The notes below the pieces were generated by a model, which worked only from the letters and a program-made list of their open reading frames with translations, had not been told where the DNA came from and made no database searches. Below, piece by piece: positions 1,028 through 43,423 of a stretch of 64,000 nucleotides of DNA (its first letter is position 1; each line of letters starts with the position of its first letter). Location of the stretch: positions 736,001-800,000 of the forward strand of contig CBDCCI010000002.1 of NCBI GenBank assembly GCA_965214705.1. Reading direction: 5' to 3'. Source of the stretch: Alphaproteobacteria bacterium. GTDB taxonomy: Bacteria; Pseudomonadota; Alphaproteobacteria; UBA828. The position numbers and the translations under genes are program-made.

Positions 1028-1133
1028 GCGCGCCTTCACCACCCCGGTCTCTCCCGCGCCGCCAGGAGCAGCGTGTGGCGTCCGTCGGGCGAGCGGCGCG
1101 GAACCTGGAGGACTCCGGCGCCGCCTCCCGCTC

Positions 1134-1559
1134 TTCCGCCATCGCCGCTGCCTGATCCCTGCCGACGGGTTCTACGAGTGGCAGCGCCGGGGCGGAACCC
1201 GGCAGCCCTGGCTGTTCGGCCTGCGGGACGGCGCACCCCTGGTATTCGCGGGCCTGTGGGAACGCTGGACGGTGCCGGAGGACGCGGCGCTCACCGGGTC
1301 GCTCGCCGAGCGCAGCCCCGGCGATGCGGTCGAGACCTGCACCATCCTCACCACCGCCGCCAACGAGACGGTGGGGCCGGTCCATGGCCGCATGCCGGTC
1401 ATCCTGCCGCCGGACGCCTGGAGCGCCTGGCTCGCCGGCGAGGACGTGCCGCTCGCGCCCTGTCCGGCGGACGACATGACCGCCCATCCGGTTTCGATGC
1501 ACGTCAACCGGCCCGCCAACGACGACCCGCGCTGCGTCGAAGCCGTCGCGCTGAGCTGA
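1134..1559 (+). pseudogene. SOS response-associated peptidase (SRAP/YedK) C-terminal fragment
   Basis: RRCLIPADGFYEW, FAGLWE and HGRMPVIL motifs; the N-terminal MCGR with the catalytic Cys is absent. Confidence 0.85.
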
Positions 1560-1583
1560 TCCCGGCCCGCCCGTTGACCTGAG

Positions 1584-3743
1584 CCCAAGTTGGCACTTTT
1601 CCGCTGCCTGTGTTCCCTATTGGTTTGATTCAACGCGATATTTTTCTCGGTCGATTCCAACATGGCCCCACATTTTGTGAGATTCTGTCAGCTCATCAGA
1701 CGGGTCCTCGTGCGGTGGATGGCGGGGTCCACGCCCGCCGCCGAGGAGATTGCGGCAACCTCGGCGGCCGGGCGCGTGTCCTGGCGGTTGACGATCAAGG
1801 TGCCGTCGGTCTGGCGCAGGCGCGTGGTGATCCGCACCCAGGTCCGCATGCTCTCGCGGATCGACGCCCAGCACTTGTGGATGCCGCGCGCGGCCAGCCG
1901 GGTACGGATCAGATGCACGGCGTGGTAGGCCAGCACGGCGATCAGCAGGTGGGCCGCGATGCGCCGGTCGAGCTGGTGCCAGATCGGGCGAAGGCCGAGC
2001 TCGGATTTCAGGCTCCGGAATGTCGCCTCGATATCCGTGATCCGCCAGTACGTCCGCAGGACCGTCTCGATGTCCCAGTCGACGTGGCTGGTGCGCAGCA
2101 CATAGGCACCGGCGCCCTCATCGGCCTCGTCGTATCGCGGCCTGCGCTTGAAGCGCACGGCGGTGGCATTGGGGCCGGTTTTCGCCCTCTCGACCGTGAT
2201 CTCGTAGTGCCTGGCGACGGCGGAGAAGCGCTGCTTGAGGCGGCCTATGCTCTCCAGCACCTTGTCGTAGCGCTTGAGGCGGCCCTTGACCGGGAGGCCG
2301 CCGTGGAGCCTTTCCAGCGCCGCCTCGAAGCGGTTCCGCCTCAGGCCGATGATCGCGTTCTCGGCCTTCTTCTTGCCCTCGCTGACGACGTAGAGCCGCG
2401 CCTCGCCGTCCTCGCTGGCAAGCCGCCAGGCCCGCACCTCGTGGCGCGCGCTGGTGATCAGCAGGGCCTCGGGTCCGCCCTCGGGCGGCGCAGGCCTGGC
2501 ACCGCGGCTGACCGCGATCCAGTCGTAGCCCTGCTCGCCCAGCCACGCGATGTTTTTCTCGGTGGCGATGCCCGCGTCCATGACCACCGTGGGCTTCGGC
2601 GCCGTGCCGCCGCACACCGCCTCGAGCCGCGCCAGCGCCTCGTGCAGCGTGCCCGGCTCGCTCACGTTGCCCGGCAGGATCTCGCAACTGCGCGGGAAGC
2701 CCGCGCCGTCGAGCGCCAGCGCCAGCGTGATGAGGGGACAGTCGTCGCGCTTCTGCTTGGAGCGCCCGAACCTGGGAAGCTCGCCGCCCGTGTGGCCGTG
2801 GTAGTGGACGTTGGTGAGATCGTAGAAGGCGATCGTCTCGGGCAGGTCGAGCAGTGCGCGCTCACGGTTGAACAGCTCCCGCTGGATGGCGGCGCGGTGG
2901 CGCCAGAGCAGGTCGCCGATGCGGTAGAGCGTCTTGCGCCGCAGCGCCTTGCGGTCGCCCTCCAGGCCCAGGAGCTCGGCGGCCGCGCTGTCGTGGCGGA
3001 GCCAGCGGCTGGTATCACGCTCGCTGGCGGGATGGACCATCCTGGCGACGATCAGCGCGCTGGCGATGCGCCCGTCGCGGCCCTTGATGTCGAGGCCGTG
3101 GAGGATTTCGGCGAAGCCGAGGGCGTCGAGGGCCTTGAGGCACAGGCGCTCGCAGCCGACCGTGCGCGGGTTCTCGTGCTCCAGGGTATCGAGGTCGACG
3201 GTGGCGATGTCGGGCTTGCGCGCCTCTTCCTGCATCGCCTCGACGCGGAACCCCCTGGCCCTGAGCTTGGCGACGATGTCCTCGGCTGCGGCCCGCACAT
3301 CCGCCTCGCCCTCGAACAGCGGCGGCTTGCCGTGAAGCAGCGCCTCGGCGAGTTCGGTGACGGCCTTCCACTTCTCGCGCGGCACCGGATAGTCGGTGCC
3401 GAGATTGAGCAGCGTCCTGTGGCGCACCTTGTCGCCGACGCGCTGGGCGAGCACGAGGCGATGGCTTCGGACCGGCTGGCCGGCCTTGTCGGTGTGTGTC
3501 CTGGTTGCCTTGATGTACATGGCGGCGCCGTTTCTGCGATGCCTGTTTCGCATACACGGCGTTCGCGGCATCTGGCAAGAGGGATATCGACTCAACTCCA
3601 AAGTCCTGGCCCCACAATTGGCTTCCAGGACCACGAATGGCAAATGTGGGTCTCAGGTGTCCTCCAACCCCAACATCTAGTGGTTCAGCGCCGCAAAACT
3701 GGCTCGAACAGGCTCGGCTGGTCGGAAAAAGTGCCAACTTGGG
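1584..3743 (-). mobile_element. IS1634-like element, copy A (2160 bp)
   Basis: Terminal IR CCCAAGTTGGCACTTTT; 4-bp TSD TGAG (1580-1583/3744-3747); appears identical to 59802-61961. Confidence 0.9.
1688..3520 (-). CDS. IS1634-family DDE transposase
   Basis: FYDLTN, GRSKQKRDD, VMDAG and IEATFRSLKSELGLRPIWH motifs. Confidence 0.9.
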   Translation of the reverse strand: MYIKATRTHTDKAGQPVRSHRLVLAQRVGDKVRHRTLLNLGTDYPVPREKWKAVTELAEALLHGKPPLFEGEADVRAAAEDIVAKLRARGFRVEAMQEEARKPDIATVDLDTLEHENPRTVGCERLCLKALDALGFAEILHGLDIKGRDGRIASALIVARMVHPASERDTSRWLRHDSAAAELLGLEGDRKALRRKTLYRIGDLLWRHRAAIQRELFNRERALLDLPETIAFYDLTNVHYHGHTGGELPRFGRSKQKRDDCPLITLALALDGAGFPRSCEILPGNVSEPGTLHEALARLEAVCGGTAPKPTVVMDAGIATEKNIAWLGEQGYDWIAVSRGARPAPPEGGPEALLITSARHEVRAWRLASEDGEARLYVVSEGKKKAENAIIGLRRNRFEAALERLHGGLPVKGRLKRYDKVLESIGRLKQRFSAVARHYEITVERAKTGPNATAVRFKRRPRYDEADEGAGAYVLRTSHVDWDIETVLRTYWRITDIEATFRSLKSELGLRPIWHQLDRRIAAHLLIAVLAYHAVHLIRTRLAARGIHKCWASIRESMRTWVRITTRLRQTDGTLIVNRQDTRPAAEVAAISSAAGVDPAIHRTRTRLMS

Positions 3744-3983: not shown

Positions 3984-4322
3984 ATGCATCTCACCGACAT
4001 CGTCATCGACGAAATCGTCAAGGTCGACGACCTTCCCTGCCACGCCATCGGCCGCGCAACCTTCACCAACGGACGCCAGTACCACTTCACGGCCATGTTC
4101 GCCCAGGCCTACGGCGACAGCCGCGTCTTCGTGCGCCGCCACGCGGGCGAACAGGAGCTCCACCCAGGCAGCCGCGCCGCGCGGGCCATATACGACCGGC
4201 TCGGGTTTGGCGACATCGCGACCCGCGAACGCGCCGCGATCGGCGCATTCGAGTACGAGCGCGTCGCCGCGTGCGAGGAGCTGATGACGCAGCCTCGCCG
4301 CGATCCTTCGCCTCCAGCCTGA
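3984..4322 (+). CDS. Hypothetical protein
   Basis: 112-aa ORF with good codon bias, co-oriented with its neighbours. Confidence 0.7.
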   Translation: MHLTDIVIDEIVKVDDLPCHAIGRATFTNGRQYHFTAMFAQAYGDSRVFVRRHAGEQELHPGSRAARAIYDRLGFGDIATRERAAIGAFEYERVAACEELMTQPRRDPSPPA

Positions 4323-4398
4323 CCCCAGGGCCATCGCCGGCCCTTCGCTCGACCGCCCGAGCGCCCTTCCTTCCGACCCACGACCGGAAAGAACCGCC

Positions 4399-4991
4399 AT
4401 GCCCCAGGTCATAGAGATCACGGTCTACGCCATCGACGAGCTATCGGACGCGGCCAAGGAAGCGGCCCGCGCCTGGTATCGGGAGTCCTGCCTCGACCAC
4501 GAGTGGTACGACTTCGTCTACGAGGATTTCGGGACGATCTGCGGGATTCTCGGCGTCTCTCTCGGGACGACCCCAGTGCGCCTCTATGGCGGCGGAACGC
4601 GCGACAAGCCCAAAGTGTATTGGACCGGTTTCAGCTCACAGGGCGACGGCGCATCGTTCGAAGGCTCCTATGCCCACGCCAACGGAGCGGCCAGAGCGAT
4701 TCGGGCCCATGCGCCCAAGGATGACGAGCTGCACCGCATCGCGGACGCCTTGCAAGCCGTCCAGAAGCGCAATTTCTGGCAATTGCACGGCACAATCACT
4801 CAGCGCGGGCGCTACTGCCACGAGCACACCATGTCCATCGAGGTGGAGCGCGACAGCCCGACCTGGCGGCCGCCGACCGACGATGCCGAGGACGCGGTGA
4901 CCGAGGCCCTGCGCGATCTGGCGCGCTGGCTCTACCGCCAGCTCCGCGCCGAGTACGAGCACCTGACCTCGGACGAAGCGATCGACGAGAC
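4399..4991 (+). pseudogene. Conserved ICE protein (often labelled 'antitoxin of toxin-antitoxin stability system'), 5' part; split by inversion A
   Basis: VYAIDELSDAAKEAARAWYR and GFSSQGDGASF motifs; the last 16 codons lie on the minus strand at 13681-13634. Confidence 0.8.
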
Positions 4992-5282
4992 GCCCCCGGC
5001 CGGGTCGTAGCCGACGCTCCCGTCGGCGGCGACGACGACCTCGCAGGCCGGCGTGTCGGTCGGGCAGTGGATGGTTACGTTGCCACGGTCCTGGGCCATG
5101 CCGGACTCGACGGTGATGCGGCTCCCCGGATCGAGCCCGTGGTTCGCGGTCACGCCGGCAAGAGCCCTGACGTCTTCGGTCAGTGCCGGTTGCCCGCCAC
5201 CGCCGGCACAACCGGACATCGCCGCCGCGAACGTCACGGCCGCCGCCAGCAGATAGACGCGCCGAAACTCCCCGATGCGCAT
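4989..5282 (-). pseudogene. Lipoprotein 1 (TbpB-like C-terminal barrel), N-terminal part
   Basis: Signal peptide and lipobox-like MSG-C; joins in frame to 13683-14525 through GTC. Confidence 0.8.
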
Positions 5283-5432
5283 CGGGAACGATCCCTTGGA
5301 GTCATAGTGCATGCATCGAACCTTTCACTGTCCGGCGCCGCACGCGACCCGAGCGACTGCCTGCGTGGGCGGCGGAGCGGGAGCGAGGACGCCGCGAAGG
5401 GAAGACGGGTCGGGGCCTTTTGCCGGCAAGCG

Positions 5433-5981
5433 TCACGGGGTAACGCGCTTTCCGCCGAACGCTCCGGCCACGCCGTCGCGTTCGAACACGCCGCCGACCT
5501 CTTCCTCGTCGGGACCGTAGAACCGCCCCGAGATGGTGTCGTCCGGGGCGTTCCGCCGGGCGAAGCCGCCTTCCTCCACAGTCATGCGGCGCCACGCCAT
5601 GTCGTCGCGGCGTTCGCCGGTCTCGGTATTGGCGATGTCGGTGAACTCGACGTCCGCCGTGATCGCGCTCGCGCCGAACTCGACCGTCACGCCGGCATCT
5701 CCCCGGATCGTCTGGCCGCGGCTGGGCGATGCCCTCATCTCGCGGCCGATCATCAGGCCCTCCCAGCGGGCCGATCCCTCCGCGGCGCCGGGGTTCTCGC
5801 CCGTCGAGAAGCCGAACGAATAGCTCAACGCTACCGTCGCACCCCGGTCCGGATATCTGTCGCCCTTGAGCAGGACGGATTCCGTCGCGAAGAGGCTGTG
5901 GTCGAGCCAGCCGCCGAAGACGTGAACGTCCACGTTGTCGGTCGAGATGTCCTCCACCACCAGGCTCACGCCGCGGCGCGA
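5433..5981 (-). pseudogene. Lipoprotein 2 (TbpB-like barrel), C-terminal part
   Basis: GGWLDHS motif and ending GRFYGPDEEEVGGVFERDGVAGAFGGKR; joins in frame to 8470-8776. Confidence 0.8.
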
Positions 5982-8399
5982 CCGGGTTCGTGTCCGCCAG
6001 TTCCATCTCGCCCCCGCCCGCCGTCACCGTGAAGGCGGAGTCCGACGGCACAGACCCGTCCAGCGCCTCGTCGAAGACGAGCGTCAGCGTCGTCCCGTCC
6101 ACCGATGCCGAGGAGAATTCCGGCGCCCTGGTGTCCGCAGACGTGACGTTCTCCACCGTCTTGTCCGAGAAGCCCGCCACCGGGAGCTTTGCCTTGTCGG
6201 CGTCCCGGAGCGGATTCGTCGCCGGCTCGGCGTAGGCCACCGTCACCGTCTGGGCGCGGTGCGCCACCCCCGGGCGCAGGGTCAGCACCACCTGGTCGGG
6301 CTCGGGGCCGGCTTCGACGAAGCGAACCCTGAAGGCGACCGCGATGGGCGTCTGGTCCGTGCCGTCGACGCTCACGGTGAACGCCGCCGGCGCCGGCACC
6401 GAGTTCGTGTCCAGGTCCGCCTCGAAGACGATGGTCAGCCTGTCCCCGGTCACGCTCGCGCTCTTGAACGCCGGCGGGGTGTTGTTGGCCACCGACACCG
6501 GGGGGCTAATCCCGAAGTTTACCACCTCATTGCCCGACAGGTCCCGCAGCGGCGTTCCCGTGGGCTTCTGGTAGAGCACGCCCACGGTCTGGTCGTGGAC
6601 CGCCGCATCGGCATCCTCCAGGGTCAGCGTCACCGCATTCCCGTCGACGGCGACGCTGGCGGGCGACTTGAAGCCAACCCCGAACAGGTTGGCCTTGAAT
6701 CGCGCCCGGCCCGGCACCGAGCTCTCGTCCAGAGGCTCGGAGAAGATCAGCGTCAGCACCTTCGCGCTCACCGTCGCCGAGGTGAGCGTCGGCACCGTCG
6801 AGTCAGTGGTGTTGTTGGTCACCGTCTTCGTGTCGCCGAAGCCCGTCACCGGAAGGTTCGCGTTGTCCGAATCCCGCAGCGGCTTCCCCCCCGCCTGATC
6901 GGCGTCGTAGGCCACCGTCACCGCCGGCAGGCTGCCGCCCACCGACTGGGCGAGCGTGAGCGTCACCGTCTCCCCGGAGACCGCGACCGCGCCGGTGGCC
7001 GCCAGGCCCACCTCGCTCCCGCCCACCGTCACGGTGAAGGCGTCCTTCCCCGGAACCGAGCCCGTGTCCAGCGCCCCTTCGAAGGTGACCGTCAGCGCCG
7101 CCCCGTTCACCGATGCCGAGGAGAAGGCCGGCGGCGTGTTGTTGGTCACCGACTGGGCCGGGAAGGATGCCAGCACGTTGCCGGACAGGTCCTTGAACTG
7201 ATTGGCGGCGGGGCCGGGGCGCAGGTATTGCACCGTCACCGTCTGGCCGTGGTCGTGGCGCACCGCGTTGTTCTCGTGAGACGTCAGCGTCACCGTGTCG
7301 CCGTCGATGGCGTAGCTCAAGGGTTTGGCGTTGAATGACGATGAGCCTCGGATGATGAACGGGGCCAAACTCCCTCCCTGCGGCACGCTCTCGTCCAGCG
7401 CCTCGGAGAAGGTCAGCGTCATCGTCGTCCCGTTCGCCGTCGCCGAGACGAACCGCGGCGCGGTCGAGTCCGCCGGGGTCTGGTTGGTCACCGACTCGCC
7501 CGAGAAGTCCGGCACCGGAAGCTTCGCGTTGTCCGGATCCCGCAGCGGATTGGCGTCGGGCGCGGCGTAGCCCAACGTCACCGTGCCGGCGGTGGCCAGC
7601 AGCGCCTCGGCGAGCGTCAGCACCACCATGCTGGCGTCGCCGGACTTGAAGGCGACCCCGGCGGGCGTCTGGTCCGTGCCGTCGACAGTGACGGTGAACG
7701 CCGACGCCGCCGTCACCGAACTCGTATCCAGGACCCCGTCGAAGGTGACCGTCAGCGCCGCCCCGTTCACCGATGCCGAGGAGAAGGCCGGCGGCGTGTT
7801 GTTGGTCACCGACTGGGCCGGGAAGGATGCCAGCACGTTGCCGGACAGGTCCTTGAACTGATTGGCGGCGGGGCCGGGGCGCAGGTATTGCACCGTCACC
7901 GACTGGCCGTGGCCGTGGCGCACCGCATTGTTCTCGTGAGACGTCAGCGTCACCGTGTCGCCGTCGATGGCGTAGCTCAAGGGTCTGACGTTGAATGACG
8001 ATGAGCCTCGGATGATGAACGGGGCCAAACTCCCTCCCTGCGGCACGCTCTCGTCCAGCGCCTCGGAGAAGATCATCGTCAGCGTCGTCGCGTTCGCCGT
8101 CGCCGAGACGAACCGCGGCGCGGTCGAGTCCGCCGGGGCGGCGTTGGTCACCGTCTCGCCCGAAAAGTCCGGCACCGGGAGCTTCGCGTTGTCCGGATCC
8201 CGCAGCGGGTTTGCGTCGGGCGCGGCGTAGCCCACCGTCACCGTGCCGGCGATGGCCAGCAGCGCCTCGGCCAGCGTCAGCTCCACCATGGTGGCGTCGC
8301 CGGACTTGAAGGCGACCCCGGCGGGCGCCTGGTCCGTGCCGTCGACGGTGAACGCCGACGCCGCCGGCACCGAACTCGTATCCAGGACCCCGTCGAAGG
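5978..8399 (-). pseudogene. Large SwmB-like repeat surface protein, internal fragment (upstream part)
   Basis: Repeated units of about 100 aa (SASVNGxxLTxxFDxxLD...VTVxY...PLRD); no native start. Confidence 0.85.
7081..8399. repeat. Near-identical 660-bp tandem duplication within the SwmB-like gene
   Basis: 7081-7740 and 7741-8394 align with few substitutions and one 6-bp indel. Confidence 0.9.
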
Positions 8400-8469
8400 C
8401 GACCCGATGCGTGCCGTTCCCGCCCTCGCCCATGGCCCGCAGGCGCCGGAAGCTCCCGCGGAGGATCGC

Positions 8470-8776
8470 ATGAGAAGAGGACTTCCGAATGCGTCCGCGG
8501 CGCTCCTGGTCGCGATCGCGCTTGCGGCCTGCTCCAGCTCCCCGGATCCGGCGCCGCCCACCGCGGAAGAGCAGGCCCGGTTCTCATACGAGAGCATCGC
8601 GAGCGGCTCGAACGCGTTTCTGATGGGCGACCATCTCGGCTATTCCGGCGCTGACGGCGCGGTGGAACGGGTGGGCGTCAGGTGCCTGGACGATACCTGT
8701 GCGGCCGCGTTCACGGGGTTCTTCCGGTCGAGCGAAGCGAGCGTCGAGACCGCGGAGCTTGAATTGCTCGGCTCGC
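8470..8776 (+). pseudogene. Lipoprotein 2, N-terminal part
   Basis: GGAGG RBS, signal peptide and LAA-C lipobox; broken at TCGC 8773-8776. Confidence 0.8.
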
Positions 8777-10289: not shown

Positions 10290-10386
10290 ACCGTTGACTG
10301 AAACGATCCTCATTATCTCATGGGCAGGCGCATATGGTCCGTTCTTGCCGGCCTTGCGGATCCGGCATGACGGCGGGGTGCGGATG

Positions 10387-10647
10387 TCAGTGAAGCGTCT
10401 TGTCGCGGGAGCCAGCGGCCATGGACCGGGCGACCAGCTTGCTCCAGGCGTCGCGGTCGAGGCCGAGGCGGCGGTTGAGCCTGTCGCACAGCCTCTCCGC
10501 ATCGGCGAGCGTGAGTGCTACGAGCGCGGTGGGGATGTAGCCGTCCATCCCCTCGAAGACGATGCGGATCTGCTGCGGCTGGTCGGGCAGCTCGTAAGAG
10601 GGCGCGAAGGCGAAGACCGGCTCCTCGGGAAGCTCGTGCGTGGCCAT
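10387..10647 (-). CDS. Hypothetical protein (86 aa)
   Basis: MATHELPEEP... ORF with good codon bias. Confidence 0.6.
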   Translation of the reverse strand: MATHELPEEPVFAFAPSYELPDQPQQIRIVFEGMDGYIPTALVALTLADAERLCDRLNRRLGLDRDAWSKLVARSMAAGSRDKTLH

Positions 10648-10654
10648 CGAAGGT

Positions 10655-11299: not shown

Positions 11300-11303
11300 C
11301 GGA

Positions 11304-34519: not shown

Positions 34520-34992
34520 CTAGCAATCCGTCCCGACGGATCAAGCGACCATCTGTTCCTCAACGCCCGCGGCGTCGGCATGACGCGACACGGCTTCGCT
34601 CACCGTCTGAAGCTACATGCTGCGACGGCGCGGCGAGCCGCACCATCCATCGCCACCAAGCGCATTAGCCCGCATGTGCTTCGACACGCCTGCGCGATCC
34701 ACACCCTGGAAGCCACGCGCGACATCCGCAAAATGTCTCTCTGGCTGGGTCATGCAAGCGTTCAGAGCACGGAGATCTACCTCCGGGCCGATCCCGTGGA
34801 CAAGCTGGATGTCCTTGCTGCGCGGCAACCACCGTCGGTGCGGAAGGGAGTCTTCATGGGTGCGACCGACCGTCTGATGGCGATATTGCACGACGTGAAG
34901 CGCCAATAGAAATGGTGAGCGGCTCCGGCCCTGAAGCCCGGTCTTGCAGGGTCGCGGCGCACCTACTCTCCATTATCTAGCCGTCACCATTA

Positions 34993-35193: not shown

Positions 35194-35342
35194 GGCAGCC
35201 TTTCCAGGTAACAGGTACCTGCCTCAATATACAATCCCTAGGAACGAAATAGGCAGGCGAAGGCAACCTTCGCGCGGTTGGTGGGGCGATGTCAGAAATC
35301 GCTCTGATTCGTGTCCAGCGGGGCTCCGGAGACGCGTTCCGG

Positions 35343-35831
35343 TTAGCAGACCCATGCAGAAGCGACGGACGATGCGGCCGAGCGCATCAGCGCCTCGACC
35401 TGATCGGCGATCCTCTGTGCGGGCTCGCGAAGCTGGGCGATGGTCCAATCTGCGGCATAGCCTCCGGTGACATCGTTGGGCCGCGCGTGGTTGGCCAGCC
35501 GCTTGGTCAGCGAGGGAGGCAGCATCAGCTCGCGCTCGGCGACGGTAATGAAGGAATTGCGCAGTCCGTGGAACCAGAACCTGGCGCCGCCGGCCTCTCC
35601 GATGCGGGCGTAGAGATGATGCGGGTCCTGGACATGGCCGGTGGCGGCGGTGCGCGAGGGGAACACCCAGTCGCGGACATCGACCGGGTAGTCGCCGGCC
35701 TCGGCCTGCCGGCGCTTGAGAATGGCTGCGAGCTGCCGGGTGGTGTGCCAATCCTTCTCGATGAAGGACGGGTCGACGGCGAGCTCCGTGGCGACCGCCT
35801 CAAGAAGCTCTTGACCGGGAGAGTCGCTCAA
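35343..35831 (-). pseudogene. In-frame chimera: AbiEii-like N-terminus fused to a tyrosine-integrase C-terminus
   Basis: ...PSFIEKDWH joined near 35745 to TRQLAAIL...HGLRNSF...NH...VTGGY. Confidence 0.75.
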
Positions 35832-36234
35832 AGGAGACGTATTTTCCGTCGTAGCCGATCTTGCGGGAGATGCGGCTCCGGACGGCGATCACGCGTCCGG
35901 TGGGGACTTGGGTGCTGGTGCCTGCACTATTGGCCTGGGCAAATGTGGATGGCATCGCTTGCACGTCGAGCCGCTCCAGAGCTTCAAGCGTAAGCGCGGG
36001 GAGGGGCTTGGCGACGACAGTCCTGCCGGATATTGGCGAAATGGCGGTGCGGGCATACAGGCCATAACCGATCTTGACGAGGCGGCCCTTGGCGGTAAGG
36101 CATTTCAGCGCGCGACCGACCTGGTCGTAACCGCCAAGATCCTCGAAGTCACGGCGCAGGAAGACATTGGCCTTCTTGCACGCAATGCGCCGGGCGATCC
36201 GCTTCTCCAAAGGCTGAGGTCGTGAGGATGCCAT
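35800..36234 (-). CDS. DUF6088/AbiEi-like antitoxin
   Basis: DFEDLGGYDQVGRAL...GYGLY and STQVP motifs. Confidence 0.75.
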   Translation of the reverse strand: MASSRPQPLEKRIARRIACKKANVFLRRDFEDLGGYDQVGRALKCLTAKGRLVKIGYGLYARTAISPISGRTVVAKPLPALTLEALERLDVQAMPSTFAQANSAGTSTQVPTGRVIAVRSRISRKIGYDGKYVSFERLSRSRAS

Positions 36235-36474
36235 GGTTGCCAGCTTGCAAAAATACGACACTCGGCAGCACACGGATATGGTGTGAGCGGGCTGCTGTCA
36301 ACAGCTTGGGAGGAGGGCTCACCGGGTCGAAACGGACATACAACCCGAACCGTAGAACCCGCCCGTCTTCCAGAATTCCGATCCGACGGCGGCCGCCTCC
36401 GAGGTCAAGCCGTCGAGGATCGTGCGGACAGGCAGCTCAAGAGCCCCCCTACACGGGGATCGGAACGAAACGCA

Positions 36475-38946
36475 TCATCCGACCTCCGGCAGGCGTGGGC
36501 GGCTCAGCAGGTCATTGCCGGCGATCTCTGGCGAAGCGGCGCCCGACCTCTCGACGGTGTAGCCAAGGCTTTCATACCCTCGGACGCGCTTCTCGCTCAT
36601 GCGCATGAGCGTCGGCACGGCCTGGTCGACATAGTCGTGGACCAGCACTTCGTGCTTCGCGGCGTGCAGGCGGTGGAGGCGGCCGACATATTGCGCGAGC
36701 GTGCCCTTCCACGAAATCGGCATCGTCAGGAACAGGGTGTCGAGGCGGGCGTCGTCGAAGCCTTCGCCGACATAGCGGCCTGTCGCGATCAGCACCCGCT
36801 CTTCCGTCTCGGGGATGTCTTCGAGACGCTGCATGATCTCGCGGCGCTGCCTGGTCCCCATGCCTCCGCGGAGAACGAGCACGTTCCGGGCAAAGCGGCC
36901 GAGCCGCTCCGCAAGGCGGTGGGCATGGTCCTTGCGTTCGGTGAGCAGGATCGGCGAGCGGCCCGCCTCCAGCGCCTGCAGCACATCGTCGAAGATCATG
37001 TCGTTGCGATCCTCGTCCGAGGCCAGCGCGGCGTATACATGCTGGATGAGCGGGCGCTCCGCGTCCATGCCGGCCGGCAGCCGGAATTCCGTCGGGCGCA
37101 GGATCGCCCGGTGTCCGAAGGGTCGTTGCCGGGCCTGCGCCTTCGCGCTGGTGCTGAACCGGACAGGACCGCACTGCATGAAGACGATCGGATGGTGACC
37201 ATCCCGGCGCGTGACCGTTGCAGACAGACCGAGGACGTATTTCGCCTTCGCCCGGCGCGCGACCGCCTCGAAGCTGACGGCGGAGATATGGTGGCACTCG
37301 TCGACCACGAGATGTCCGTAATCGGCGACGATGTCGTCGACCTCGCCCTTGCGCACCAGGCTCTGGATGACACCGACATCGACGATGCCGCCCGGTTTGC
37401 GCCTGCCGCCGCCGATTTGCCCGATCGCGGCGACCGGAAGATCGAGAAACGCCGCGAGCCGCGCGATCCATTGTTCCATGAGCTGGCGCCGGTGGACCAG
37501 CACCAGCGTGTTGGTCCGGCGGGCGGCGATGACGGCCGCGGCGATGACCGTCTTGCCGAACCCGGTCGCCGCCGCGAGCACGCCGATGTCGTGCGGCAAC
37601 AGTGCATCGGCGGCGGATTGCTGCTCCGGAGTCAGGCTTCCGAGAAACGTCGTTTCTACCGGACGGCCGGGATTGCGCTCGTCGCGCATGTCCAAAGGGA
37701 TGCCCAGTTCTTCCAGCAACCCCTCCATCGCCTCGCCGCAGCCGCGAGGCAGGGCAATGTGGTGAGACAGCAACTCGGCGCAGGCGACGATGCGCGGGAT
37801 GCCGAAGGTGGAGCGCCGCATCGCCTGAGCGCTGTAGAAGGCCGGGTTCTGGAAGGCCGCGAGACGGATGAGCCGGTTGACCAGACCCGGCGGCAAATTG
37901 GCGCGCGGGATGTAGATCTGGTCGCCCCGAACCGCGTCGATCCGCTCCGGCAGCGGTCCGGCAATCTCGGGCAGCGGCCGGCGCCGCGACGGCGGCGCGC
38001 TCCAGGGCTCGTCGTCCTCTTCGTCGAGCGGCAAACGCAGCCCGACAACCCGGCCCTGCCGGCCAGCCTCGTCAACGATGGCGGTCGCCTCGGCCAGGGA
38101 GAGGCGGCGCATGGAGGAGAGGAAAGCCCACTGGTCGGCATGGGGCTCGAAACTGTCGTCCAGAAAGACGCTGTTGCCGTCCTCGCGCGGACCGCCCTGC
38201 AGCGGCAGCGCGATGAGATTGCCGAAGCCGCCCGCGGGCACGGTGTCCTGGCTCGGGAAGAACCGGTCGTAGGACGCGAACCCGATATCCGGGTTGCGCT
38301 CCATCGTCTCGGTGACCAGATGGGCGCCGAGACGGCGGGCGAGGGCGGCGGGCACCGGCTCGACGAAGAAGATCCAGACATGCCCGCCATTGCCCGAACG
38401 CGAGCGTTCGAGAGCCGCCGGCACGCCCTTCAAGCGGCAGGCTTCGAGAAAGGCGCCCGCGTCCCGTCGCCAGCTCGCCTTATCGAAGTCGGCGGCGAGA
38501 ATCCGGCAGGTGTCGTCCGGGAGCATGGGATAGACGCCGATCGTGTGGCGGCCGCGCAGATGCCCGTCGATCGCCTCGTCCGTCACCTCCCGGAACGCCT
38601 GGTTGGGACAGGCGCCGCACTTGACGCGCGGCTTGCCACAGATGCGGGGCGCCCACTCATTGGCGCAGACCGGTGCGTATCCCGCCTTGCCTGTCCCGGC
38701 GTTGTCCCAGCGCTTCGGATAGACGTCCTCGCGGCCGCGAAACAGGGATCTGAACAGCGCGATCTTGTCGTGTGCCGACGAACGGTTGGTGATCGGTCCC
38801 GCGGACGGCAGGACATCCTTCAACGCGGTGGGCGGATTCCCAATCTCAGCGAGACGGGCCTCAAGGGTCGCCTTCTCGGCCTCAAGACGCGCAAGCCGCT
38901 CGCGTATGAGCGCGGCTTCCTCGTCGTGGGATGAAGCGTGCGCCAA
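36475..38946 (-). CDS. AEP primase-polymerase/SF2 helicase fusion (IEE/TOTE-like), about 823 aa
   Basis: LFRGREDVY, DFD, SRSGNGGH and GNLIALPLQ (AEP-type); ATGFGKT, DECHH, SAT and QYVGRLHR (SF2); start codon estimated. Confidence 0.85.
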   Translation of the reverse strand: MAHASSHDEEAALIRERLARLEAEKATLEARLAEIGNPPTALKDVLPSAGPITNRSSAHDKIALFRSLFRGREDVYPKRWDNAGTGKAGYAPVCANEWAPRICGKPRVKCGACPNQAFREVTDEAIDGHLRGRHTIGVYPMLPDDTCRILAADFDKASWRRDAGAFLEACRLKGVPAALERSRSGNGGHVWIFFVEPVPAALARRLGAHLVTETMERNPDIGFASYDRFFPSQDTVPAGGFGNLIALPLQGGPREDGNSVFLDDSFEPHADQWAFLSSMRRLSLAEATAIVDEAGRQGRVVGLRLPLDEEDDEPWSAPPSRRRPLPEIAGPLPERIDAVRGDQIYIPRANLPPGLVNRLIRLAAFQNPAFYSAQAMRRSTFGIPRIVACAELLSHHIALPRGCGEAMEGLLEELGIPLDMRDERNPGRPVETTFLGSLTPEQQSAADALLPHDIGVLAAATGFGKTVIAAAVIAARRTNTLVLVHRRQLMEQWIARLAAFLDLPVAAIGQIGGGRRKPGGIVDVGVIQSLVRKGEVDDIVADYGHLVVDECHHISAVSFEAVARRAKAKYVLGLSATVTRRDGHHPIVFMQCGPVRFSTSAKAQARQRPFGHRAILRPTEFRLPAGMDAERPLIQHVYAALASDEDRNDMIFDDVLQALEAGRSPILLTERKDHAHRLAERLGRFARNVLVLRGGMGTRQRREIMQRLEDIPETEERVLIATGRYVGEGFDDARLDTLFLTMPISWKGTLAQYVGRLHRLHAAKHEVLVHDYVDQAVPTLMRMSEKRVRGYESLGYTVERSGAASPEIAGNDLLSRPRLPEVG

Positions 38947-39161
38947 GTCGTCCCCGTTTCGTAGATCGACCCGCAAATGCCGGCGAGGGAGCAGGATAGT
39001 GCGCCCCGAAAGCCCCGGTAAACATCGCCACCGCCGCGTACCGTTCAGCCCGCGCCTCCTCCAGCTCCTGCTCCGCATTGGTTCTGGGCGCTCTTTGAAT
39101 GTCCGGGGCGTACGCTTCTTCCACCGAATCCGTGAAACAGCATGAGCCGGACCGGAAGCGG

Positions 39162-40457
39162 CTAGTCGCGGACAACGAGGATAGCCGAGAGAGAGCCAAG
39201 CGGATCCGCATTTTCGAGCCGGTTGGCCAGCAGGTAGAGATCCCGGGCGTGCATCCCGAGTCTCCGGTGCCGCCACACCAGACACTGCACGCCGTTCAGC
39301 GTTCCGTGGCCATCCGTCGGGCTTTGTTCCCCTGCCCCATAGAAGAGAAGTGTGTTTCCCCCGTACATCCAGTCCGCACGGAGGGCCGGAGGATGCTCGG
39401 ACAGCAGCTTCTCGAAGGAAGCCAGATCCTCGCCCTCGGCGCTTGTTCCGGCCGGCTGGGGCACGCTCACGACGCATAGGCCGAGGGAAGACGGCACCAC
39501 GCCCCAGTCGCCGTGATTGTCGTTGCCGGGTTCCCGAGCGCCGTGCTGCACGTCGCCGCCGCGTCGCCGGAGCCGCTCGTGTCCGGAGAAATACCGATAG
39601 GCCTCGATCTGCGCGGACACGATCTCCGGAAGAAACGTCGGGTACGGCGTGTCGGCCTTGACCAGGTTGGCTCCGTGAACGCTGTCGCCACGCCTGAACC
39701 GCGTCGTCGGCTCCGCATAGTAACGAGAGTCTGTGTAGACCCCGCTGCTCGAACCGTAGGTGCTGTTATACCTCCCCAGAATGGCTTCCACGGTTGGGGG
39801 CTCGATGCCGAGGGCCGTCAGGTTGGTGTTCAGGTATGACTTGGAAAACACGGCGTCGATCCGGTCGCGATGAGCGGGATGGAGCGCCTTGTACAGTCGT
39901 AGGAGGGAATGCCCGGACGCGTCCTTGTCGTCCCTCGTCAGGCAGGCCTTGAACCCCAGTTCGGCGGCCGTGACGAGGAGGTGCAGCGCAAGCATGATCT
40001 CGACCAGACTGGCCGGCAGTCGTCCGGCCGGCACAGCAGCGTTGTAGAGCCTGAAATACTGCTCCGCGAACTCGAGCATGAGATCGGGGTCGCCGTGGCG
40101 GTCGATGACCGTGCCGTCCTGCACGTTGCCCTCGAATGTGGGCCACAGCGCGTTCCGGCCGGCCCGATAGGCGGCGGGGAACTGGACGGACACGAAGTCT
40201 CGCCTGTCCGCGGGCAGGTTGTGGAGCATCACCTGCCGGCGGCGCACATCGCCGGTTCGGGTGTCGCCGTCCGCGGCGCGTTCCACCGGCGTTTCGTGCG
40301 CCAGGGGATCGTCCGTAGTCCGCCGACCGCATGCGGGGCAGAGATACTCTGTCTCCTCTTTGACCAGATTCCCGAGGAGCCGAAGTCCGAACCGGAACGC
40401 CTTGGGCGTGGCGATCAGCTCGGTATCGGTGCATGCGTCGCAAACACGGTTCATCAA
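39162..40457 (-). CDS. Hypothetical protein with N-terminal Zn ribbon and HEPN-like region
   Basis: CxxC...CxxC; ELGFKA, GHSLLRLY and SRY. Confidence 0.55.
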   Translation of the reverse strand: MMNRVCDACTDTELIATPKAFRFGLRLLGNLVKEETEYLCPACGRRTTDDPLAHETPVERAADGDTRTGDVRRRQVMLHNLPADRRDFVSVQFPAAYRAGRNALWPTFEGNVQDGTVIDRHGDPDLMLEFAEQYFRLYNAAVPAGRLPASLVEIMLALHLLVTAAELGFKACLTRDDKDASGHSLLRLYKALHPAHRDRIDAVFSKSYLNTNLTALGIEPPTVEAILGRYNSTYGSSSGVYTDSRYYAEPTTRFRRGDSVHGANLVKADTPYPTFLPEIVSAQIEAYRYFSGHERLRRRGGDVQHGAREPGNDNHGDWGVVPSSLGLCVVSVPQPAGTSAEGEDLASFEKLLSEHPPALRADWMYGGNTLLFYGAGEQSPTDGHGTLNGVQCLVWRHRRLGMHARDLYLLANRLENADPLGSLSAILVVRD

Positions 40458-40749
40458 GGTTCTCCGCAGAGGAATAGCTCAGGCCGCTCCGATTTCGGGA
40501 CGGCACGTTACCCTTTTCGGACTCACCCCGCGCGGGACGAAGACGGCTCGCCGATACTGCCCGGAGAGCCGCACCCCTCGGCCTGCGGGCAGGCTGTCCG
40601 GCAGTGCGGCCGCCGGGCGAATGCGACCTTGTAGATGCGACAGTTGCCCATGCAGGGCGTGCCCCGAGTGTTGGCGGACAATTCCGGGCCGACGAGGCTC
40701 CGGGAGACAATGAAGATGGGATCGGAGTAGGCGAGCGGGCCAAGTCTTT

Positions 40750-41508
40750 CTACGTTAGTTGATACACGGTGCGAAGAAGATCGGCTGCCTCATCCCGGGT
40801 GAAGGGAACGTCAAATGCCCTAGGATCGAGAGTCTGGTCGGCGTGAGCCTGGTCGACGAAAGCGCTAAGGTCTTGGCGGACGGATTCGGGCAGTGCGACC
40901 CGTGTGTCCTCGGGCAGGAGTTGCGCGAGCCGGAAGACATCGTTGCGATGCTTCCTGATGTCCCTTCGGTCGACGTTCGCGCCTTCCTCGGACCGAGCGG
41001 TGAGGTCGAGAACTGCGCGGGCCTTGAACGGTATGAGCAGGGTCTCGTCGACGATCGTGACGCCCTCGACTTGGCGCTTGGCGGCCTGGAGCGCCGCGAA
41101 ATAGGCATCGTCCAGCAGGATTGCCGAAAGGCTGACGATGTCCTGGTCTACCGGTACCCGCGCGTAGATCGCGCCTTCGGGCAGGTCGAGGTTCACCGGG
41201 CGCCGCGCAAAGAGCTCAATCATGAAAGGGAAGCTCCGGTCGGTCGGACGGTGAAATCGGCAGAATTCCCTTCGACCGTCGCTCCGTTCGCGGGCTTGAT
41301 ATCCGCCTGCATCAAGGAACGTTTGGAAGGCCTTTCCGAATTCGGCGTCGACCACCTCGATGCAAAGCACCATGTCGATGTCCCTGGTCGCCCTGAAATC
41401 GAGACCAGCTGCGTCGAACAGCAGGTCGCAAGCGGTGCCGCCGATGATGGCGTATTGCCCCTCGTGGGCTGCGAAGTGTTCGCGAAACTTGTCGATTCCG
41501 GTTACCAC
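40750..41508 (-). CDS. Nucleotidyltransferase (AbiEii-like)
   Basis: IIGGTAC...RATRDIDM and KHRNDVFRL. Confidence 0.75.
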   Translation of the reverse strand: MVTGIDKFREHFAAHEGQYAIIGGTACDLLFDAAGLDFRATRDIDMVLCIEVVDAEFGKAFQTFLDAGGYQARERSDGRREFCRFHRPTDRSFPFMIELFARRPVNLDLPEGAIYARVPVDQDIVSLSAILLDDAYFAALQAAKRQVEGVTIVDETLLIPFKARAVLDLTARSEEGANVDRRDIRKHRNDVFRLAQLLPEDTRVALPESVRQDLSAFVDQAHADQTLDPRAFDVPFTRDEAADLLRTVYQLT

Positions 41509-42479
41509 GGCATTCCGTCCAACAGTCGTTCCGCCGCCATGGAAACGCGCTCATCGCGGTGATCGCGGAACTGCGCGTAGAGCGACAGCGGATCCACGGT
41601 GCGCGCAGTGGACAAGGCGGCCGGGTCATATGACCAGGTTTCCACGATATGGGAAGCTTGATCCCGGTCGGTTTCGAACAGCCCATGGGTCTGGGCGACA
41701 ATCTTCCAATCGCTGGCCGCGACCGCGAAAGCCGGCAGCGGCGGCGGGGACAGGTCTGTGAGATCGGCGAGCGCGCTCTCGCCTGCGTGTTTCAAAGGCG
41801 GAGGGGGGTGAGCGTCTCGAATGAACTTCTCGGTGCGCACAGGGCTGCGGAGCAGGTCGTGCGCGGCATCGAACAGTTGCCTGCCCTCGGCCTGGAATCG
41901 GATATGCCGCTCCTTGCCGTGTCTTTCGGTATGGGCCAGCCCGGCACCGACCAGATCGTCGAACGCGCGGCCGATCGACATGGCCGAGTAGTGCAGCTGT
42001 GCCGCTACGAGGGATGGGGCTGTCACGGTCTCGTCGAGCCGCAGGAGGCGATGGAACAATACCGCCTGGGCCGCCGGCGAGAGGCCGGCTGCGCGACGTG
42101 GCTTCGGCGTGCGGAAGCGTTCGCGCAAGTCCATCGCGAGGTCAGGGATGTAGAGCTGCTTGCCGGGCACGACGAACGGGATTCGTCGTTCGATGAGGCG
42201 CGAGCGGTTGTGCGCGCTCAGCCACGGAGCGACGAAGACGACGATCGCGTCAACGGCGGGGCGGACCAGGGCGACATGCTTGGCGATGTCGGATGGCGTG
42301 GCGGCGTTGTCGACGGTCGCAAGGAAGATGCATCGCCTTCCAGCCACGTGGCCTTCAAGGAGGCTGTACATGCGGGAAAGAAATGATGGGAGGCCGGGCG
42401 CGCCGTCGAGCGCAGCGACCCTTGCGGGTTCGTGAAGGGTATCTTCGAGATAGCGCTGGAGCGCGGCGGCGATTGGCAT
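41502..42479 (-). CDS. HTH regulator, AbiEi-like partner
   Basis: IPFVVPGKQLYIP, HTH, AGESAL and VDPLSLY...DERV. Confidence 0.7.
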   Translation of the reverse strand: MPIAAALQRYLEDTLHEPARVAALDGAPGLPSFLSRMYSLLEGHVAGRRCIFLATVDNAATPSDIAKHVALVRPAVDAIVVFVAPWLSAHNRSRLIERRIPFVVPGKQLYIPDLAMDLRERFRTPKPRRAAGLSPAAQAVLFHRLLRLDETVTAPSLVAAQLHYSAMSIGRAFDDLVGAGLAHTERHGKERHIRFQAEGRQLFDAAHDLLRSPVRTEKFIRDAHPPPPLKHAGESALADLTDLSPPPLPAFAVAASDWKIVAQTHGLFETDRDQASHIVETWSYDPAALSTARTVDPLSLYAQFRDHRDERVSMAAERLLDGMPW

Positions 42480-42774
42480 TGCCAACGTTTCGCGGTTTAT
42501 TACTAACGTCATAATGCATGCTAACACTATCAATGTTAGTGTGCAAAGATGTCGTTACAGACGTGTCGGTTCGCCGCAAAATGCCCTCCCGAGTCGGGCT
42601 CGCGGATGTCGCGCACCGCCTTGAGGCGGTCGGGCATGTGCTCGGGCCTGGTGGCGTACTGGTTGCGCCCGCTCTTCAGACGGTGCAACCAACGCTCAAC
42701 CAACCACATTCGATCCGAACTTCTCGACGCTACGGTTGGGGCGGGTCGGGCTGTCGATCCTTCCCGCCGTCGCG

Positions 42775-43191
42775 CTACGCGCCGCCGGGTGCATCCAGCC
42801 CGACGGCCTGCGCCGCAGCGGCCAGCGCCCGGTCCAGGGTCGCAAGCGGCAGCCGCATGCGCAGCGCGAGCTCGAGATTCATAGCATCGTAGACGGAGAG
42901 GTTGTGCTCGTCGGCGAGAGCGAGCGCAGGGCCCCATACGCGGGATGCAGATACCGGGTCGATCTCGATGGGCAGCGCTTCCAGGCTGGCGCACACGGCG
43001 GGCCACTCGTCCGCGCGAAGGCGGCCGCGTTTGGTAGCTGCGAGCAACACGCTGCCGACCTCGACCGGCCAGAGGGAGGGGACGAAGGCGCGGTCGTCGA
43101 TGAGGGAGTCCCGCAAGCGGGCCGTCGCCTCGGTCGCCTCGTCGGCGAAAACCCATGCCATGGAGACCGAGCAGTCGAGGACGAAGGGCAT
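42775..43191 (-). CDS. VapC PIN toxin
   Basis: VLDCS, LSVYDA and LATLD. Confidence 0.88.
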   Translation of the reverse strand: MPFVLDCSVSMAWVFADEATEATARLRDSLIDDRAFVPSLWPVEVGSVLLAATKRGRLRADEWPAVCASLEALPIEIDPVSASRVWGPALALADEHNLSVYDAMNLELALRMRLPLATLDRALAAAAQAVGLDAPGGA

Positions 43192-43423
43192 CAGTACCTG
43201 CGCGCTTCCTCGACGATACTGCGCACCGACAGCCCTCCGAGGCTGTGGGTCTCCTGGAACGCTCTCAGGGTGTCGATCGCGCTCCGCACCTTGGCGGCAT
43301 CGCGCTGCCGGAAGGGAATGAGCTCGGCCACCGGACGGCTGTGCTTGGTGATGACGAAGCGTTCGCCCGCTTCGACGCGCTGGAGTAGCTTGGGCAAATG
43401 CGTCTTGGCCTCGAATGCGCCGA
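43191..43423 (-). pseudogene. Phd antitoxin lacking its start
   Basis: GAFEAKTHLPKLLQRV; the 5' end is replaced by an IS1595 fragment. Confidence 0.8.

Follow-up and report, generated by a model that had tools for sequence, protein, structure and literature searches.

Introduction

In bacteria, illegitimate recombination can proceed without RecA at short homologies, and alternative end joining is also known. The closest described enzyme to the one considered here is the IS-excision enhancer (IEE) of Escherichia coli O157:H7 Sakai, which in passages of PMC9943667 is described as joining 3' overhangs that share at least 4 bp of homology in vitro and as promoting IS excision. Passages of that paper and of the Chandler preprint attribute to IEE both IS excision and larger IS-adjacent deletions, in a transposase-dependent manner, and those of the preprint count ISLre2 among the copy-out-paste-in families. 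An IEE-linked inversion or fragment capture is not described in these passages; the preprint uses the word "inversion" a single time, within the name FIS.

Here, we analyzed a 64,000-nucleotide stretch of DNA (the window, to which all positions without a prefix refer) from a 7.9-Mb, IS-flooded and repeat-rich genome with a G+C content of 67%, whose host would be an alphaproteobacterium-like, sponge- or marine-associated organism. A sequence-only reading of the window had listed two reciprocal inversions and three fragment insertions between 1.1 and 14.5 kb, and had proposed an IEE-like PrimPol-helicase encoded in the same window as the maker of this mosaic. The window was compared with 21 genomes of the genus, labelled G000 (the host genome), G005, G006, G008, G014, G017, G020 and so on, with pA and pB, the sister copies of the island within the host genome, and with contigs of the short-read runs X1, X3, X17 and X19. 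The ancestral order was reconstructed from relatives that are 78-97% identical and from paralogues rather than from a direct ancestor.

Results

Two nested, exactly reciprocal inversions

The first 14.5 kb of the window probably represent a conjugative-island-type backbone, present as a dead copy and carrying surface-protein cargo. Five IS-free, gene-destroying rearrangements are gathered in this one island copy, each at an identity of 2-8 nt, and the disrupted genes are all cargo or backbone. Both sister copies, pA and pB, remain colinear with G014:C65 and G014:C163 across 12-20 kb. Scans for Rfam families and tRNAs in the window gave no match.

Inversion 1 spans 4992-13682, with the exchange lying within a 3-nt inverted identity, GAC (4989-4991, and its reverse complement at 13683-13685). 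It cuts a gene here called alpha into 4288-4991 and a part read on the reverse complement from 13682, and a lipoprotein gene, beta, into 5324-4992 on the reverse complement and 13683-14522. The ancestral joints are kept in G014:C65 (30795-30797), G006:C83 and G020:C4, and also in G008:C2 (183145-183152). Inside this segment, inversion 2 spans 5982-8772 with an exchange within the 4-nt inverted identity GCGA (5978-5981, reverse complement at 8773-8776), and cuts two genes, one for a TbpB-like lipoprotein and a giant one for a surface protein with SWM repeats. Position 5979 is joined to the reverse complement of 8771 in the host's own paralogue (C2, 74051-74925) and in five relatives; likewise, an X3 contig from a sponge-metagenome relative joins 5981 and 8772 on opposite strands with four shared letters, which is the un-inverted joint. 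Re-inverting both segments in silico with symmetric cuts yielded four open frames, three of which are gap-free across the joints against intact homologues, namely alpha (251 aa, homologue of 252 aa), beta (391 aa, homologue of 390 aa) and the TbpB-like frame, while the SWM frame is open for 1376 aa. Both inversions are exactly reciprocal, with 0 bases lost or gained, and the claim of two reciprocal inversions was thereby upheld by relatives, paralogues and restored frames. Beside the breakpoints of inversion 1 only 9 of 14 positions match, and no extended recombinase-type inverted sites were seen.

Two deletions, one mosaic insertion and one ordinary IS insertion

A deletion of 1.77 kb at 1133/1134, with a 2-nt identity (CT), is defined by comparison with G014:C65 (27335/29102) and with the paralogue pA (C1, 1367254/1371185). 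It removed the 5' 100 codons of a gene for an SOS-response-associated peptidase (SRAP), leaving a 3' fragment at 1134-1556 on the plus strand (Pfam PF02586, profile positions 93-213 of 214); intact SRAP in pA has 241 aa, and the window fragment matches it from residue 101 only. The second deletion, of about 4.4 kb, has its joint at 10654-10661 with an imperfect identity of 5-8 nt, within a gene that encodes 1883 aa in pB. The flanks of this joint stay ~4.4-4.9 kb apart in ten island copies (eight in relatives, pA and pB), so that the interval is kept in all ten other copies, seven of them from IEE-encoding genomes.

The 1.6-kb mosaic insertion at 11380-12996 carries CCCGGTC, a 7-nt direct repeat, at its borders (11373-11379 and 12990-12996), and its uninterrupted site was found in G014:C65 and G006:C83. 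It is composed of the 3' end of a putative OmpR-type regulator gene, as read from the translation (11380-11465), the tail of an IS3-family element (11539-11680), an FGE-sulfatase gene (11681-12692), a piece of an IS3 orfA that lacks its end (12689-12955) and a piece to which no source was assigned (12956-12989). The termini are unrelated fragments without terminal inverted repeats, and both inner IS pieces are truncated. G017 and G005 both carry the composite 11539-12955 at 97-98% identity, and G020 carries its first 1.2 kb (11539-12754); because the same composite exists in these genomes, its internal fusions are inherited. A donor of 11380-11538 was sought in the 21 genomes of the genus, which returned generic response-regulator tails only (74-95%).

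In addition, a full-length DDE_Tnp_1 IS of 2160 bp on the minus strand (1584-3743) inserted in the ordinary way, duplicating 4 bp (TGAG), and its site is empty in G014:C65; a genome census found 36 full and 8 truncated copies of this element (at least 96% identity). Thus, the places previously given for the rearrangements were accurate to within a few bases, whereas the event types differ: of three supposed fragment insertions, only one, at 11380-12996, was identified, and two deletions and one ordinary IS insertion were found besides.

Identity at the joints and contig support

The five joints carry pre-existing identities of 2, 3, 4, 5-8 and 7 nt, which is well above the chance expectation. 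The mean for 200,000 random junction pairs was 0.82 nt, and identities of at least 2, 3, 4, 5 and 7 nt occurred among them with probabilities of 0.20, 0.076, 0.028, 0.010 and 0.0012, respectively. The 3-7 bp first read at each joint do exceed chance, whereas the measured range is 2-8 nt. A repeat scan and Pfam search found neither IS or transposon ends nor long repeats at the five joints, in agreement with the earlier description.

Contigs of X17 and X19, both from one study, bridge 5981|5982, 8772|8773, 11379|11380, 11538|11539 and 13682|13683 with 0 differences; 4991|4992 is bridged by X17 alone and 5981|5982 also by X1, from a second study, again with 0 differences. Six joints are accordingly spanned by short-read contigs, whereas the two deletion joints (1133/1134 and the stretch 10561-10823) had no bridging contig among the 32 pieces listed, with 1269 more beyond these. 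Moreover, the similarity of relatives ends at exactly these joint bases. No alternative isoforms appeared in contigs of the strain's own runs, in which rare variants are invisible. X17, X19 and X1 also show joints whose sides measure 20-26 letters; these resemble artefacts of contig ends and were set aside. The X3 contig also joins 10807 to 4995, with 23 letters between them.

Other gene fusions and element stumps

Abrupt fusions had been noted at several further places, and those near 10655, 11537 and 12684 were found as described. Near 35745, a fusion frame on the minus strand (35346-35831) joins a putative AbiEii start, which by our own reading comprises the first 29 residues, at about 35744 to the C-terminal portion of a tyrosine recombinase; an AbiEi antitoxin gene lies upstream (35800-36273). 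Near 43421, an IS1595-family stump on the plus strand (43420-44070), which by Pfam lacks its left end and the first ~115 codons, adjoins a 5'-cut phd antitoxin gene on the minus strand (43200-43424). The fusion claimed near 31050 was recovered in part, as a C-terminal integrase fragment by Pfam with nothing further seen beyond it. This fragment is the first gene, 5'-truncated at about 31048, of a RIT-like tyrosine recombinase trio on the plus strand (31048-34906; Pfam and repeats), the third gene of which is interrupted by a 1620-bp DDE_Tnp_1_4 IS (32901-34522). One-ended stumps of IS3, IS1595 and RIT elements were thus seen as reported. The window also contains a large serine recombinase gene (22092-23882) and, according to Pfam, codes for several integrases/recombinases.

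A full-length IEE homologue in a solitary cassette

The gene at 36475-38946 on the minus strand (TTG start at 38946, no stops) encodes a predicted 823-aa protein with an archaeo-eukaryotic primase (AEP)-type primase-polymerase domain and an SF2 helicase. BLASTP against IEE of E. coli O157 Sakai (ECs_1305) gave 682 bits across 808 columns, of which 46% are identical and 61% positive; the alignment pairs residues 178-982 of the long frame with residues 1-784 of the 786 in ECs_1305, i.e. end to end. The AEP domain matches PF22548 (AEP-TOTE) with an E-value of 5.4e-96 over profile positions 1-226 of 230, and E. coli IEE gives 1.7e-98 on the same model. The helicase part matches ResIII (7.2e-22), DEAD (3.6e-11) and Helicase_C (1.4e-4), and has XPB/RadD-like matches in the PDB. 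The DFD of motif A (hDhD), Tyr128, Lys451 (GKT) and Arg735 (GRLHR) are aligned with and conserved relative to E. coli IEE, in which, according to passages of PMC9943667, they serve as the metal-binding motif A, a tyrosine replacing the usual histidine, the Walker A lysine and the arginine finger. These comparisons, which bear out the proposed likeness to IEE, identify the predicted product as a genuine full-length member of the established IEE family, a protein of an already known kind, with its catalytic residues kept. The family comprises at least 8000 proteins at E ≤ 1e-20, annotated mostly just as "DEAD/DEAH box helicase". By analogy with the E. coli enzyme, the likeliest role of the homologue would be in promoting the excision and loss of copy-out-paste-in IS along with their transposases.

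The gene lies in a solitary 2.67-kb cassette (36375-39039), the extent shared with G005:C2 (92%), where the flanks are unrelated. Its neighbours in the window are three ORFs without an assigned function and the AbiEi gene. When a conserved operon was sought in the 1.5-kb flanks of nine other IEE loci, the three upstream ORFs, AbiEi and PIN recurred at none. The cassette is 22 kb away from the scrambled stretch, with several other mobile elements between, and the notion of a self-encoded shuffling system is therefore weak.

IEE is present in 11 of the 21 genomes, with two intact genes in G000, of which the one outside the window lies at C3, 18296-20710, and at least two in G014, which keeps the ancestral order. 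The IEE loci of the genus and of E. coli SpLE1 lie amid partial IS copies. However, comparison of relatives with and without the gene, of the kind that the sequence-only reading had suggested for junction density, showed IS3 tail stumps to be equally frequent (4/11 IEE-positive vs 4/10 IEE-negative genomes). G000 holds ~150 full-length copies over four IS families; its commonest families are DDE_Tnp_1, an IS91-like Y2 element and ISLre2-like elements, the last with 23 full copies. Purging of IEE-sensitive IS families, considered in view of only 14 rve matches in G000, was set aside on account of these 23 copies and of ~15 identical full IS3-family copies in the IEE-positive G017. A search for Ku (PF02735) in the host genome (98.5% completeness) returned 0 matches.

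Discussion

The rearrangements probably accumulated in a dead island copy through illegitimate recombination that was guided by microhomology and independent of RecA. Short identities would have annealed, or the template would have switched, during replication or break repair, giving rise to the joints, and the rearrangements may persist because this copy is no longer under selection. Against this explanation, five events within 13 kb of one copy, as opposed to none detected in pA and pB, form a striking concentration, for which relaxed selection accounts only post hoc, and simple slippage would not be expected to give inversions at 3-4 nt that are perfectly conservative. The scrambled copy is also the one that shares a replicon region with the IEE gene. 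IEE may have contributed to microhomology joining here, and it stays a candidate because a genome without Ku offers few dedicated end-joining candidates, but no observation ties it to these particular joints.

It is rather unlikely that the resident IEE itself produced the inversions, deletions, fragment capture and IS stumps by joining transposase-made breaks or strand-transfer intermediates at microhomologies. Such an origin would fit an enzyme that is intact, conserved and present in two copies in a Ku-less genome with a huge transposase load, including the copy-out-paste-in ISLre2-like elements, as well as the surroundings of IEE loci in partial IS copies and the overhang joining, IS excision and larger deletions ascribed to the E. 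coli enzyme in passages of PMC9943667 and the Chandler preprint. However, all joints here lie away from IS ends, whereas the events in those passages are IS-anchored and transposase-dependent; the 2- and 3-nt identities fall below the 4 bp reported there in vitro; and the inversions are loss-free, a kind of event that, like fragment capture, those passages do not connect with IEE. Moreover, G014 retains the ancestral order despite its IEE genes, the sister copies pA and pB of this very cell are not scrambled, IS3 stumps do not follow the gene, G017 keeps its IS3-family copies and some of the fusions are inherited. The earlier attribution of the mosaic to IEE is thus not sustained. The wider proposal that an IEE-family enzyme in a Ku-less, transposase-saturated genome catalyses IS-independent rearrangements, namely inversions without loss at inverted identities of 3-4 nt, microhomology deletions and the capture of foreign fragments, preferentially near its own gene, so that the cassettes themselves produce the "IS graveyards" and scrambled islands around them, is improbable. 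If the link to IEE were true, enzymes of the IEE type would act broadly in restructuring bacterial genomes rather than as aids to IS excision.

Little credence is due to the view that a conservative breakage-and-reunion enzyme made the inversions at chance sites, with the deletions and the insertion being of separate origin. Candidates would be a type II topoisomerase, by gyrase subunit exchange with its 4-nt stagger, or the serine recombinase at 22092-23882, the integrases and the RIT trio acting at pseudo-sites. Exact reciprocity, exchange within 3-4 nt inverted identities and the several recombinase genes in the window are in keeping with it, whereas the poor matching beside inversion 1, the lack of extended recombinase-type sites and the absence of other examples in the host genome argue against it. 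Normally, a longer stretch of overlap identity is needed by tyrosine recombinases and a 2-nt core by serine recombinases. Finally, assembly or amplification chimeras, for which the very repeat-rich genome and the two deletion joints unbridged among the listed contigs could speak, are extremely improbable given six joints bridged with 0 differences in runs of two studies, frames and reciprocity preserved across joints, and the similarity of relatives ending at the same bases.

With microhomology-guided illegitimate recombination as the favoured origin, the value of the locus now is that it cleanly documents naturally arisen microhomology joints, among them two nested, perfectly conservative inversions for which the ancestral forms still exist. 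In addition, the host looks culturable, is saturated with IS, lacks Ku and has two IEE genes, which would make it a good system for studying IEE function outside E. coli.

Comparison with known systems

The AEP domain of the homologue is named by Pfam after conflict systems termed TOTE (TPR, OB, TBP, Effector), work on which is cited in PMC12458937. The locus differs from these systems in having no operon partners, with no TPR, OB/CSD or TBP Pfam match in the five upstream ORFs (39162-43156) or the three downstream (35253-36436), and its neighbours are not conserved at the nine other IEE loci. The same domain matches PADLOC PDLC01465 ("PrimPol, CAS-associated") at 4.6e-89 and PDB 7nqd at 3.5e-09; we take 7nqd and 7nqf to be CRISPR-associated PrimPol. 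In contrast to that protein, the AEP domain here is fused to an XPB/RadD-like helicase, and the window has no Cas family among the 150 ORFs searched by Pfam, nor did the repeat scan show a CRISPR-like family of repeats.

The closest counterpart is IEE of E. coli O157:H7 Sakai (ECs_1305, SpLE1), with the same N-terminal Z1568-like/AEP-TOTE AEP domain and C-terminal SF2 helicase at 46% identity, the same DFD, Tyr in place of the usual His, Walker A Lys and Arg finger, and the same setting as a solitary island gene amid partial IS. It differs in that the host here is marine and of 67% G+C, and the activity is predicted. Upstream of the E. coli gene lie DUF3987 and a small ORF, in place of the three ORFs and the AbiEi gene found here, and it is DDE_Tnp_1, IS91-like Y2 and ISLre2-like elements, not IS629, that dominate in the present genome. 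The scrambled stretch, for its part, resembles short-homology illegitimate recombination in its 2-8 nt identities, joints without mobile-element ends and destroyed genes, and differs from it in its two perfectly conservative inversions and in the clustering of five events within 13 kb of a single copy.

An island patchwork in a genome rich in insertion sequences

The host genome (G000), 7.92 Mb in three contigs with 67% G+C, is flooded with insertion sequences (IS); the window spans positions 736001-800000 of its contig C3. At 96% identity or more, a 2160-bp DDE_Tnp_1 element (window copy w1584-3743) has 36 full copies and 8 truncated ones; its 94% variant has 22 and 2, and an ISLre2-like element 23 and 1. 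At the same threshold, a 2666-bp IS91-like element encoding a Y2 transposase and a tyrosine integrase (window copy 53764-56429) has 66 full and 17 truncated copies, plus 19 that an insertion has split. In the 19 split copies the second insertion always sits at one internal position (~w55124), a hot spot for nesting. While other IS families account for about 150 full copies, rve-type integrases gave only 14 matches in this genome. At w1584-3743 the IS inserted in the ordinary way, with a TGAG duplication, and its site is empty in the relative G014. An identical 62-nt sequence precedes the 2160-bp IS at window 1522-1583, downstream of SRAP, and at G000:C1:1368270-1368330 in pA, one of two sister islands (pA and pB) elsewhere in the genome, upstream of SRAP, suggesting that this IS targets a motif repeated within the island.

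The window itself is a patchwork of segments. Island backbone with surface-protein cargo (1-14.5 kb) gives way to a segment of 57% G+C (14.6-22 kb) that includes an integrase and a ParA-like gene. The rest of the window contains several toxin-antitoxin pairs, a large serine recombinase, a trio of recombinases, the gene of an IS-excision enhancer (IEE) and further IS. The stretch 14600-21000 has 56-58% G+C against 67% in the genome, and the second segment carries an HTH-plus-ParA-like ATPase (15589-16818, minus strand), a weakly matching AbiEii-like gene (18569-19456) and the integrase (20749-21975, minus strand). Next to an IS1595 stump, 44340-48173 (plus strand) encodes a protein of 1278 aa that combines FG-GAP repeats with ASPIC/UnbV and a helical domain of the VCPO type.

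Two nested, exactly reciprocal inversions

Both inversions proposed by the sequence-only reading are present, as judged from relatives, paralogues and in silico restoration, the ancestral order being inferred from relatives and paralogues. For inversion 1 (w4992-13682), w3744-4991 continues into the reverse complement of w12997-13685 and then of w10654-11379 in the relatives G014 (C65) and G006 (C83), which are 95-97% identical, and in G008 (C2) the reverse complement of w13676-14582 directly continues into w4990-5352; these are thus the two ancestral joints of a single inversion. Resolved to the base, the exchange falls within GAC (w4989-4991) and the matching reverse complement (w13683-13685). 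Inversion 2 (w5982-8772) is nested within inversion 1. In a paralogue from the host genome itself (C2:74051-74925) and in five relatives, w5444-5979 runs into the reverse complement of w8436-8771. A sponge-metagenome contig of run X3 (~97% identical) connects w5981 with w8772 across opposite strands and has four letters that suit either side; these are GCGA (w5978-5981) and its reverse complement (w8773-8776).

Reversing both inversions in silico with symmetric cuts restored four frames: gene alpha (251 aa, gap-free against a frame of 252 aa in G014:C65), the lipoprotein gene beta (391 aa, gap-free against a frame of 390 aa in G008:C2), a TbpB-like lipoprotein (gap-free across the joint against the C2 paralogue) and an SWM-repeat protein (1376 aa, in frame). 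Both inversions are therefore exactly reciprocal, with zero bases lost or gained. Inversion 2 placed the halves of the SWM gene on opposite strands, which explains the inverted repeats I3 and I4. The SWM-repeat gene (6000-8400) comprises about four tandem 660-bp units, 60-93% alike. Another X3 sponge-metagenome arrangement, w10807 joined to w4995 with 23 other letters in between, matches neither the window nor the inferred ancestor.

Two deletions and a mosaic insertion

Where three fragment insertions had been proposed, we found two deletions and a single insertion. At w1133/1134, with 2-nt identity, a deletion of 1.77 kb took away the first 100 codons of the SRAP gene, which is intact in G014:C65 and in pA. 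A deletion of ~4.4 kb at w10654-10661, with 5-8 nt of imperfect identity, removed most of a gene encoding 1883 aa in pB; its flanks stay 4.4-4.9 kb apart in ten other island copies. The 1.6-kb insertion (w11380-12996) lies between 7-nt CCCGGTC repeats at a site uninterrupted in G014 and G006, and is itself pieced together from five parts: the 3' end of a gene for a response regulator (by our reading of the translation), the terminal 142 bp of an IS3-family element (w11539-11680) whose OrfB in G017 carries HTH_21, rve and rve_3, a gene for an FGE-sulfatase, part of an IS3 orfA without a terminal repeat, and 34 nt with no source assigned. Tail-only stumps of this IS3-family element, which retain its right end and the C-terminal 36-84 residues of OrfB and are often of similar extent, occur at many sites in 8 of the 21 genomes of the genus set, and may be a solo-end or MITE-like derivative. 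The further gene fusions that had been noted were confirmed at 10655, 11537, 12684, 35745 and 43421, and the one at 31050 was seen only as a C-terminal integrase fragment by Pfam.

As had been claimed, neither a long repeat nor an IS end lies at the five joints. Short identities (2, 3, 4, 5-8 and 7 nt) occur at all five, against a chance mean of 0.82 nt; the chance probabilities of at least 2, 3, 4, 5 and 7 nt are 0.20, 0.076, 0.028, 0.010 and 0.0012.

A solitary IEE gene

The frame at 36475-38946 (minus strand, TTG start at 38946) encodes 823 aa and matches AEP-TOTE (5.4e-96), ResIII, DEAD and Helicase_C in Pfam. The E. coli O157 Sakai IEE (ECs_1305, taken from the annotated record) matches the same models and aligns end to end (46% identity, 682 bits), and the residues named for it in the available text of PMC9943667 (metal-binding motif A, Tyr128, Lys451 and Arg735) are all conserved in the alignment. 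By homology, therefore, the gene is a true member of the IEE family, as had been suggested. The family numbers at least 8000 proteins at E<=1e-20, which sources name only as DEAD/DEAH helicases; the closest named homologues among the matches listed belong to Alphaproteobacteria and Rhodobacteraceae MAGs. At the same threshold, 11 of the 21 genus genomes have a match, with two in the host genome.

Judging from its surroundings, the gene forms a cassette on its own: the 93% identical copy in G005 resembles this locus only over w36375-39039, and no neighbour recurs at nine other IEE loci. Three consecutive ORFs upstream (431, 252 and 343 aa; 39162-42533, minus strand) have no Pfam match and a single weak, CARF-like PADLOC match (1.5e-4); they are unique within the host genome and missing from other IEE loci.

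Origin of the rearrangements

The joints, their short identities and the destroyed genes are observed; they are best explained by RecA-independent, microhomology-guided rearrangements that would have accumulated in a defunct island copy. The self-encoded shuffling system proposed earlier, in which the resident IEE generated the mosaic, is unsupported, and we consider it unlikely. In its favour, Ku (PF02735) was not found in the 98.5%-complete host genome, which has two intact IEE genes and an enormous transposase load; partial IS copies surround the IEE loci, and the five events cluster in the sole island copy sharing a stretch with an IEE gene. However, the available text of PMC9943667 and of a preprint by Chandler, Ross and Varani describes IEE-dependent events as transposase-requiring excision of copy-out-paste-in IS and larger IS-associated deletions, with in vitro joining requiring 4 bp or more, whereas here no IS end coincides with any of the five joints, two of the identities fall short of 4 nt and the inversions are conservative. 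G014 retains the ancestral order despite at least two intact IEE genes, as does G006, where no IEE was found; the 4.4-kb interval is intact in all ten other island copies, seven of them in IEE-encoding genomes; and pA and pB share 12-20 kb of colinear sequence with G014:C65 and G014:C163. The internal fusions of the composite w11539-12955 were inherited, since it recurs at 97-98% identity in G017 and G005, and its w11539-12754 part in G020. In a small sample of related genomes, tail-only stumps of the IS3-family element are present in 4 of 11 genomes with IEE and in 4 of 10 without, and the IEE-positive G017 holds ~15 identical full copies.

The loss-free inversions are the oddest feature of the mosaic. 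Compared with resection-based end joining, a double template switch or a conservative exchange at staggered breaks would fit them better, and we therefore keep a topoisomerase or recombinase as an alternative, an improbable one, for the inferred enzymology. An assembly artefact is highly implausible: among public-run contigs aligned over w900-14700, which are unable to show rare isoforms, those of X17 (4502-7108, 8686-10558, 10823-11599, 11601-12801 and 12885-14622, with 0 differences), equivalent ones of X19 from the same study, except over 4991/4992, and one of X1 from a different study with a different organism code (5825-7108) bridge every inversion and insertion joint, although none of the 32 pieces listed bridges the two deletion joints. 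Similarity to X3 contigs ends exactly at w4992 and w13685. Runs containing the window stretch come from cultures coded organism A and B and from sponge, coral and marine metagenomes.

Comparison with known systems

Our literature search, in the portions of the sources available to it, found no description of IEE-linked inversions or fragment capture, which is not proof that none has been published. Microhomology joints within decaying islands are a known kind of event, and the window gene adds another member to an already known family. Its AEP-TOTE domain takes its Pfam name from TOTE systems, but the TPR, OB and TBP partners from which these take their name (available text of PMC12458937) were not found near it. 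Like the IEE locus of E. coli SpLE1, the IEE loci here lie among partial IS copies.
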